From Escherichia coli (GTDB lineage Bacteria; Pseudomonadota; Gammaproteobacteria; Enterobacterales; Enterobacteriaceae), in the NCBI RefSeq assembly GCF_003334315.1, contig NZ_QOWR01000062.1: a stretch of DNA of 27,671 nucleotides; one strand, written 5' to 3'. A model generated the notes under the pieces. It was not told the DNA's origin. It ran no database searches and was given only the letters and a program-made list of their open reading frames with translations. The position numbers were made by a program, and so were the translations under genes. Below, one piece after another: positions 1 to 404 of this stretch. Numbering within the stretch: position 1 is the first letter of the stretch; each line of letters opens with the position of its first letter.

Positions 1-107
1 TTTTTCGTCTTGCGACGTTAAGAATCCGTATCTTCGAGTGCCCACACAGATTGTCTGATAAATTGTTAAAGAGCAGTTGCGACGCGGCTTTCAGCTCACT
101 GTCGCGA
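1..107 (-). promoter_or_regulatory. rRNA operon 5' leader (16S upstream transcribed spacer) with boxA antitermination element; 16S gene lies just outside the window
   Basis: Reverse complement of 1-80 reads GCAACTGCTCTTTAACAATTTATCAGACAATCTGTGTGGGCACTCGAAGATACGGATTCTTAACGTCGCAAGACGAAAAA, which I recognise as the conserved E. coli rrn leader; boxA (TGCTCTTTAACAA) is at 63-75 on the minus strand. Confidence 0.85.
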
Positions 108-145
108 GGTGGCGTATATTACGCTTTCCTCTTTCAGAGTCAACC
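108..145 (-). promoter_or_regulatory. rrn P2 promoter
   Basis: Minus strand reads TTGACT (138-143), 17-bp spacer, TAATAT (115-120), GC-rich discriminator; closely resembles rrnB P2. Confidence 0.7.
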
Positions 146-217
146 CTGAATTTCAGGATTTTTTTCTCTTCGTTGTTCCGACCATCCTGTGAAGTGTTTC
201 ACGTTGTCGTCTCAACG

Positions 218-275
218 GAGGCGCATTATAGGGATCCCAATTTTTTGCACAAGTATTTTTTTGATCTTTTTTTCT
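218..275 (-). promoter_or_regulatory. rrn P1 promoter with AT-rich UP element
   Basis: Minus strand reads TTGTGC (247-252), 16-bp spacer, TATAAT (225-230) followed by GCGCC discriminator; A/T-rich block 253-275 upstream, as in rrn P1 promoters. Confidence 0.7.
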
Positions 276-404
276 GTTTGTTGTTTTTTCACCCTTTTTG
301 CTGCAATCGCACACAAAACGGTGCTTTTTTGCATACTAAAAGACTTGCACAAGGCCAATAATGCCCCCAAAGTCATTAGTAAATCATTTATTGCTGAGGT
401 AAGT

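Follow-up and report, generated by a model that had tools for sequence, protein, structure and literature searches.

The stretch of Escherichia coli DNA analysed in this study (the window, 27,671 nt) opens with 404 nt that read, on the minus strand, as the promoters and leader of a ribosomal RNA operon and that lead, on the plus strand, into the divergent gene yrdA. This raises the question of which rrn operon the segment belongs to, and of how a promoter for yrdA is fitted in beside one for rRNA. As judged from its sequence, the left end of the window is almost certainly the rrnD control region (P1, P2 and the beginning of the 16S leader), with yrdA pointing away from it. Because the window stops before the 16S gene, the operon was inferred from identity to complete genomes. 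Identity and alignment, rather than motif matching, were relied upon because a generic sigma-70 scan did not rise above chance, returning 1 site against 1.5 expected from shuffles; P2 alone was detected, and P1 was missed because its -35 hexamer has 3/6 consensus bases. Four things were observed directly: how far the sequence is identical, to which operon it belongs, where its elements lie and how well they are conserved.

Positions 1-404 of the window were identical at 404/404 nt, with no substitution, to the region between rrsD and yrdA in E. coli K-12 MG1655 (NC_000913.3 3428763-3429235). The K-12 flanks of this match were yrdA on one side and rrsD-ileU-alaU-rrlD (16S, tRNA-Ile, tRNA-Ala, 23S) on the other. 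NC_000913.3 3428832-3456502 was collinear with the whole window, with the gene order yrdA, yrdB, aroE, tsaC, followed by the alpha, spc and S10 ribosomal protein operons and ending at gspA-C. A megablast search of 1-404 against 5,426 complete E. coli genomes gave 100% matches in many strains, MG1655 among them, and at least 80% of the query was found in one place in 5,417 of the genomes. The median number of places per genome was seven, since the leader is common to the seven rrn operons. When an rrnD-specific query (150-560) was used, 5,432 places were found in the 5,426 genomes, with a median of 1.

All seven K-12 rrn upstream regions were then aligned with the window and identities were counted per segment. 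The leader aligned and the operon was confirmed as rrnD, as the original prediction had expected from gene context. From boxA onwards (1-77) the match was 77/77 in rrnA, B, C, D, E, G and H. The earlier placement of the conserved leader at 1-80 therefore stood for 1-77, which is invariant in the seven operons, and failed for 78-80, which differ between operon classes. In the boxB hairpin region (78-114) identity was 37/37 in rrnD and rrnH, 32/37 in rrnE and 20-21/37 in rrnA/B/C/G, and in the P2 core (115-150) it was 36/36 in rrnD, rrnE and rrnH. Thus 78-150 was identical to rrnD and rrnH only, with 115-150 identical to rrnE as well, and the leader and P2 taken alone would equally allow another operon of the D/E/H class, rrnH or rrnE, in place of rrnD. 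This assignment was refuted by the remainder of the alignment, since 151-404 matched rrnD only: the P1 core (216-252) was identical at 37/37 in rrnD against 24/37 in rrnH and 23/37 in rrnE (21-24/37 across the other operons), and the segment upstream of P1 (276-404) at 129/129 in rrnD against 48/129 in rrnH and 44/129 in rrnE (29-48/129 across the other operons). The order yrdA, yrdB, aroE, tsaC is also exactly that of rrnD, and the probability left to rrnH or rrnE is negligible.

The source of the window is a close relative of K-12 and not MG1655 itself, as follows from three synonymous substitutions and an insertion. Up to 27299, before IS1, the only substitutions relative to MG1655 were at 449 (yrdA I15), 7161 (rsmB T262) and 21495 (rpsS V67), all of them synonymous. 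Collinearity with MG1655 was lost in gspC (27300-27671), where the window runs into the IS1 end GGTAATGACTCCAACTTATTGATAG. A query spanning the gspC/IS1 junction was covered to at least 80% in one place in just 4 of the 5,426 complete E. coli genomes, and a single contiguous 100% match to it was found in none of them, so that IS1 in gspC was regarded as a rare strain-specific insertion.

The original prediction had placed the 16S gene about 70 bp beyond the left edge. In K-12 the distance from window position 1 to the 16S start is 69 nt (the 404-nt match ends at 2904 of the K-12 locus L001, and 16S starts at 2974), and rrsD is likewise found there in strain ECCHD184. The gene itself, the 5' end of which is AAATTGAAGAGTTTGATC, is thus not directly seen within the window, and no listed genome is identical to the source strain, which carries IS1 in gspC; on these grounds it could be proposed that in that strain the promoters and leader are an orphan or a decayed remnant, not followed by a working rRNA operon. 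However, all 404 nt are 100% identical to the functional rrnD of K-12, the promoter elements carry no mutation, and a segment covering at least 80% of the query is present in one place in nearly all complete genomes, as given above. A remnant is therefore extremely improbable, and the segment is treated below as the control region of an intact rrnD. For its start sites, the Fis binding, the mechanism of regulation and the yrdA promoter, we draw on the literature or infer.

The P1 core was located at 216-252 on the minus strand by its sequence and by the seven-operon alignment. It comprises the -35 hexamer TTGTGC (252-247), a spacer of 16 bp, the -10 hexamer TATAAT (230-225) and the G+C-rich discriminator GCGCCTCC (224-217, with GCGC at 224-221); the P1 originally read at 225-252 (TTGTGC, 16 bp, TATAAT-GCGC) proved exact in its coordinates. 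The combination of a sub-optimal -35 and a consensus -10, 16 bp apart, with a G+C-rich discriminator is that of the rrn type. The -10/discriminator motif TATAATGCGCC was invariant in the seven K-12 operons and showed at most one mismatch in 25 other species. A phylogenetic footprint comprising the window and these 25 other Enterobacteriaceae species (26 sequences) indicated that the P1 core is nearly invariant, the unusual -35 TTGTGC included, and the rrnD-type P1 is therefore old. A weak -35, a 16-bp spacer and a G+C-rich discriminator are held responsible for unstable open complexes, and the instability of P1 open complexes explains the control of such promoters by NTP concentration and by ppGpp/DksA. 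At rrnD, the weak -35 and 16-bp spacer, together with the consensus -10 and the G+C-rich discriminator, would likewise be expected to give short-lived open complexes that respond to the initiating NTP and to ppGpp/DksA.

Transcription from P1 is predicted to start with the G at about 216, the position aligned with the rrnB-type start, which in rrnB P1 we take to be the A in CCACCACTG. The presence of both P1 and P2 in rrnD has been described (PMC5110994), and a response of rrnD P1 to GTP (PMC9239199) agrees with G at 216. That transcription starts at P1 and P2 and is under growth-rate and stringent control is taken from the literature (PMC5110994, PMC9239199). The G at 216 varies among species: the majority of the other Enterobacteriaceae carry A there (GCGCCTCCATCGAC), and G was observed in E. 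coli, E. albertii, Kosakonia, Phytobacter, Siccibacter and one Enterobacter species, so that a GTP-initiated P1 beside yrdA appears to be a lineage-variable trait.

Upstream of P1, an A-rich tract, AGAAAAAAAGATCAAAAAAATA, occupies 254-275 on the minus strand (read 275->254; -38 to -59) and was assigned as the UP element. With 19/22 A/T it bears out the A/T-rich UP element that had been expected there. Its proximal half, AAAAAAATA (262-254, -46 to -38), fits fully to AAAAAARNR, which is reportedly the proximal subsite consensus of Estrem et al., and its distal half fits the consensus poorly. The element was highly conserved in the 26 Enterobacteriaceae sequences. Contact of this A-tract with the alpha C-terminal domains of RNA polymerase would be expected to boost P1, as would Fis bound further upstream. 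GATC (Dam) sites were observed at 233-236 in the P1 spacer (GGGATCCC) and at 263-266 in the UP element (AAGATCAA); both are kept in nearly all 26 aligned sequences, and a third GATC occurs near -95 in many of the other species.

Hirvonen et al. 2001 are said to have mapped the Fis sites and UP elements in the P1 promoters of all seven operons, and the earlier expectation of FIS sites between rrn P1 and the yrdA ATG is a reasonable one. A consensus scan with the classical degenerate 15-mer, which matches about 5 times per kb in the window, gave G...C matches centred at -67/-71 and at -144. The first predicted site, the Fis-like 15-mer GGGTGAAAAAACAAC (280-294, centred at -71), is in register with GGTTGAATGTTGCGC of rrnB and was conserved as a block among the 26 Enterobacteriaceae sequences; the second, GGGGCATTATTGGCC (353-367, centred at -144), is a weak match lying in the spacer of the candidate yrdA promoter described below. 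As the motif is loose, both matches are supportive only. According to PMC5110994, which refers to Hirvonen et al. 2001, upstream Fis sites activate rrnD P1. Besides the UP element and the -71 block, a further block at 296-320 (about -80 to -104) was conserved in the 26-sequence alignment and was assigned to the activating region of P1, and beyond it conservation dropped sharply.

P2 was located at 116-143 on the minus strand, by the promoter scan and by the 36/36 identity with rrnD, rrnE and rrnH over 115-150. The hexamers originally proposed, TTGACT for the -35 (143-138) and TAATAT for the -10 (121-116), were retained, and the spacer and span required correction: the spacer is 16 bp and not 17 bp, and the promoter covers 116-143 and not 115-143, as a 17-bp spacer would require the hexamer AATATA at 115-120. 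From spacing, its start may be placed near 108-109, some 108 nt beyond that of P1, and P2 would be expected to give a lower and more constant output. Just upstream of the P2 -35 lies a perfect palindrome, CCTGAAATTCAGG (145-157), common to rrnD, rrnE and rrnH only. On the plus strand, where a T-run follows it, this palindrome scores as a terminator-like hairpin.

Downstream of P2, the invariant part of the rrn 16S leader (1-77, minus strand) is cut by the window edge. Within it boxA, TGCTCTTTAACAA, which is invariant in the seven operons, was found at 63-75 on the minus strand (75->63), exactly where it had been predicted. Directly 5' of boxA, minimum-free-energy folding gave a boxB-type hairpin at 79-105 (minus strand, 105->79). 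A hairpin is present in this position in every K-12 rrn leader, with energies of -11.4 to -14.7 kcal/mol and a class-specific sequence. The whole 110-nt leader folds no better than shuffles (z = -0.68), and only the local boxB hairpin was therefore considered meaningful. RNAalifold applied to the boxB region of the seven leaders gave a poor consensus, as the two classes of leader cannot be aligned position by position in that region, and the single-sequence folds are informative instead. On the 3' side of boxA, an invariant GU-rich motif, TGTGTGGG (41-48, minus strand, 48->41), was identified from its sequence and is presumably the boxC named in the rrn antitermination literature. Between rrsD and yrdA, PMC5371410 lists a known site of RNase III cleavage at 3428875, which corresponds to about window position 44, 113 nt before the mature 16S end. 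Transcripts from both P1 and P2 would thus run through the boxB hairpin, boxA and the GU-rich box, on which a Nus-factor antitermination complex would be loaded, and would then enter the stem cut by RNase III at about position 44, before the expected beginning of the 16S gene 69 nt past the window edge.

An Rfam search at gathering score gave no family for the rrn leader. The sole RNA family at that level in the window was Alpha_RBS (RF00140; 13608-13719, minus strand, 102.7 bits), which lies upstream of rpsM and is the translational operator to which S4 binds in the alpha operon. In a permissive search, a sub-threshold match to Ysr197 (RF02849, Yersinia sRNA 197) was obtained at 53-295 on the minus strand; it spans the full length of the model (90.5 bits, E = 8e-22) and could be read as a free-standing small RNA encoded by the region. 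The score is, however, well under the gathering score of 167, and the matched segment opens about 80 nt ahead of the P1 start point and takes in the UP element, P1, P2 and boxA. A match extending over the UP element and the promoters reflects DNA-level similarity of rrn control regions, and the yrdA-upstream loci of Yersinia, on contigs that are truncated, also fell below the Ysr197 gathering score. A small RNA is accordingly given next to no probability against an rrnD control region, and the comparison suggests that the RNA-seq-derived Yersinia 'sRNA' Ysr197 is itself an rrn promoter/leader segment.

On the other side of P1, yrdA (405-959, plus strand; annotated, 184 codons) encodes a hexapeptide-repeat protein of the gamma-carbonic-anhydrase family and is preceded by a conserved Shine-Dalgarno sequence, GAGGT, at 396-400 on the plus strand. 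Its divergence from rrn P1/P2 was borne out by the K-12 annotation and by the identity described above, and the estimate of about 150 bp between rrn P1 and the yrdA ATG was close, the distance from the -35 edge (252) to the ATG (405-407) being 152 bp. The argument that the yrdA promoter must share these 150 bp is sound. In a few genomes an ORF of 54 aa within the intergenic region (212-376, minus strand) is annotated as a 'hypothetical protein' (WP_000172051.1). This ORF spans P1, the UP element and the Fis region and is almost certainly an annotation artefact; the other ORFs of the intergenic region were judged in the same way.

In the 26-sequence alignment, two modest islands of conservation with fixed spacing, CTTGC (344-348) and CCAAAGTC (366-373), were found upstream of yrdA. 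Read on the plus strand, they place TTGCAC and CAAAGT 17 bp apart, and a candidate sigma-70 promoter for yrdA was defined on this footprint at 345-373 (-35 TTGCAC, 345-350; -10 CAAAGT, 368-373; predicted start about 380). This pair was the best PWM match in 9 of the 26 sequences and among the top three in 15, and CAAAGT is a poor -10 hexamer. A rival -10, AATAAT, lies at 357-362 on the plus strand. In the form (A/G)ATAAT it was the top PWM match in 5 species, and in E. coli it comes without a -35. Yersinia and Serratia appear to use the hexamer TAGTAT, part of a clearer promoter (TTGTAA-16-TAGTAT) that adjoins the same CAAAG motif, and the E. coli assignment is uncertain for this reason. The sequence pattern makes TTGCAC/CAAAGT at 345-373 the likeliest single candidate, and as the yrdA promoter it is proposed tentatively, with somewhat less than even confidence. 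By eye, two other sigma factors were rejected for the CTTGC...CCAAAGTC pair: sigma-32, as the CCCC of E. coli is not kept in other genera, and sigma-E, as the spacing of about 20 nt is too long.

A yrdA-lacZ fusion carrying 'the natural promoter' has been reported to be expressed (PMC2912661). No mapped yrdA transcription start was found in the supplements of PMC2912661, PMC4161252, PMC3415461 and PMC4782308. The arrangement envisaged is that a weak promoter, situated between the ATG and the activating region of P1, in a stretch of some 85 bases with little conservation, and most plausibly TTGCAC-17-CAAAGT at 345-373, would drive yrdA in the direction opposite to rrnD. An antisense promoter inside yrdA, with CATAAT as its -10, has also been described (PMC2912661). 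The sole such hexamer on the minus strand of yrdA is at 553-558 and matches that -10, and the antisense transcript begun there would proceed, in the same direction as rrnD, into the activating region of its P1.

The pairing of yrdA with an rrn operon was followed across species by a YrdA protein scan with one genome per species, which yielded 80 loci. Three rrn landmarks were counted, namely boxA, the TATAATGCGCC -10/discriminator motif and the 16S 5' end. At least one of them was found divergently upstream of yrdA in 65 of the 80 loci. The pairing was observed in Enterobacterales (in Enterobacter sp. Ag1, 16S was identified upstream of yrdA by Rfam), in Vibrionaceae, where 16S was seen in three loci, and in Aeromonas (one locus). 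In Pseudomonas no rrn landmark was present in 5/5 loci, each with 1,500 nt upstream of yrdA. Draft contigs mostly end 180-600 nt upstream of yrdA, which marks a collapsed rrn repeat. Between the yrdA ATG and the P1 motif the distance was 173-189 nt in 31 Enterobacteriaceae loci, and 180-189 nt in all but one of them; in E. coli it is 185.

These observations could be taken to mean that the yrdA promoter is nested in the Fis-bound activating region of rrnD P1 and that the back-to-back unit is an old, constrained module, a reading that we consider unlikely. If it were true, expression of yrdA could be mechanically coupled to rRNA synthesis, by Fis bound at -144, within the spacer of the candidate for the yrdA promoter, or by negative supercoiling sent by each promoter to the other. 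The position of the Fis-like 15-mer in that spacer would allow an effect of Fis on yrdA, although this is speculation. Such coupling would also hint at a growth-rate-linked role for the uncharacterised gamma-carbonic-anhydrase-like protein YrdA.

The rrnD promoters, the leader, activation by Fis and the sensing of GTP are already known and were described decades ago, and a sequence identical to the reference is of little importance as a discovery. The main use of the segment is as an anchor, which fixes the window as E. coli at MG1655 coordinates 3428832-3456502. The conserved yrdA-rrn pairing and its spacing bear on a minor question, the position of the yrdA start and any coupling of yrdA to the activity of the rRNA promoter.

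The control region was finally compared with those of rrnB and rrnC. The P1/P2 region of rrnB is experimentally the best studied of the rrn control regions. Like rrnD, it has an UP element, a P1 with a 16-bp spacer and TATAATGCGCC, a P2 with TTGACT, and then a boxB hairpin and boxA, from which point on the two leaders are identical. Upstream of these lies the Fis-site region of rrnB, whose GGTTGAATGTTGCGC aligns with the -71 15-mer of rrnD, a predicted Fis site. The two control regions differ in the P1 -35 (TTGTGC in rrnD, TTGTCA in rrnB), in the P1 +1 (G against A), in the UP element (an A-tract in rrnD, AAAATTATTTT in rrnB), in the P2 -10 (TAATAT against TATTAT) and in the sequence of the boxB hairpin; the segment from P1 to P2 is about 10 nt shorter in rrnD, and the upstream neighbour is the divergent yrdA in rrnD, whereas in rrnB it is the co-directional murI. 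All of these differences are documented properties of rrnD. Among the seven K-12 upstream regions, the other divergent pair of an rrn P1 and its neighbour is rrnC-yieP. There the neighbour gene is unrelated and P1 is of the rrnB type, yet in both pairs the start codon of the neighbour is upstream of P1, exactly 175 nt from the first base of its -10 (405 against 230 in the window; 120 against 295 in the rrnC-yieP locus, L004). The equal spacing may be a coincidence, or it may represent the minimum room for an activating region plus a promoter.
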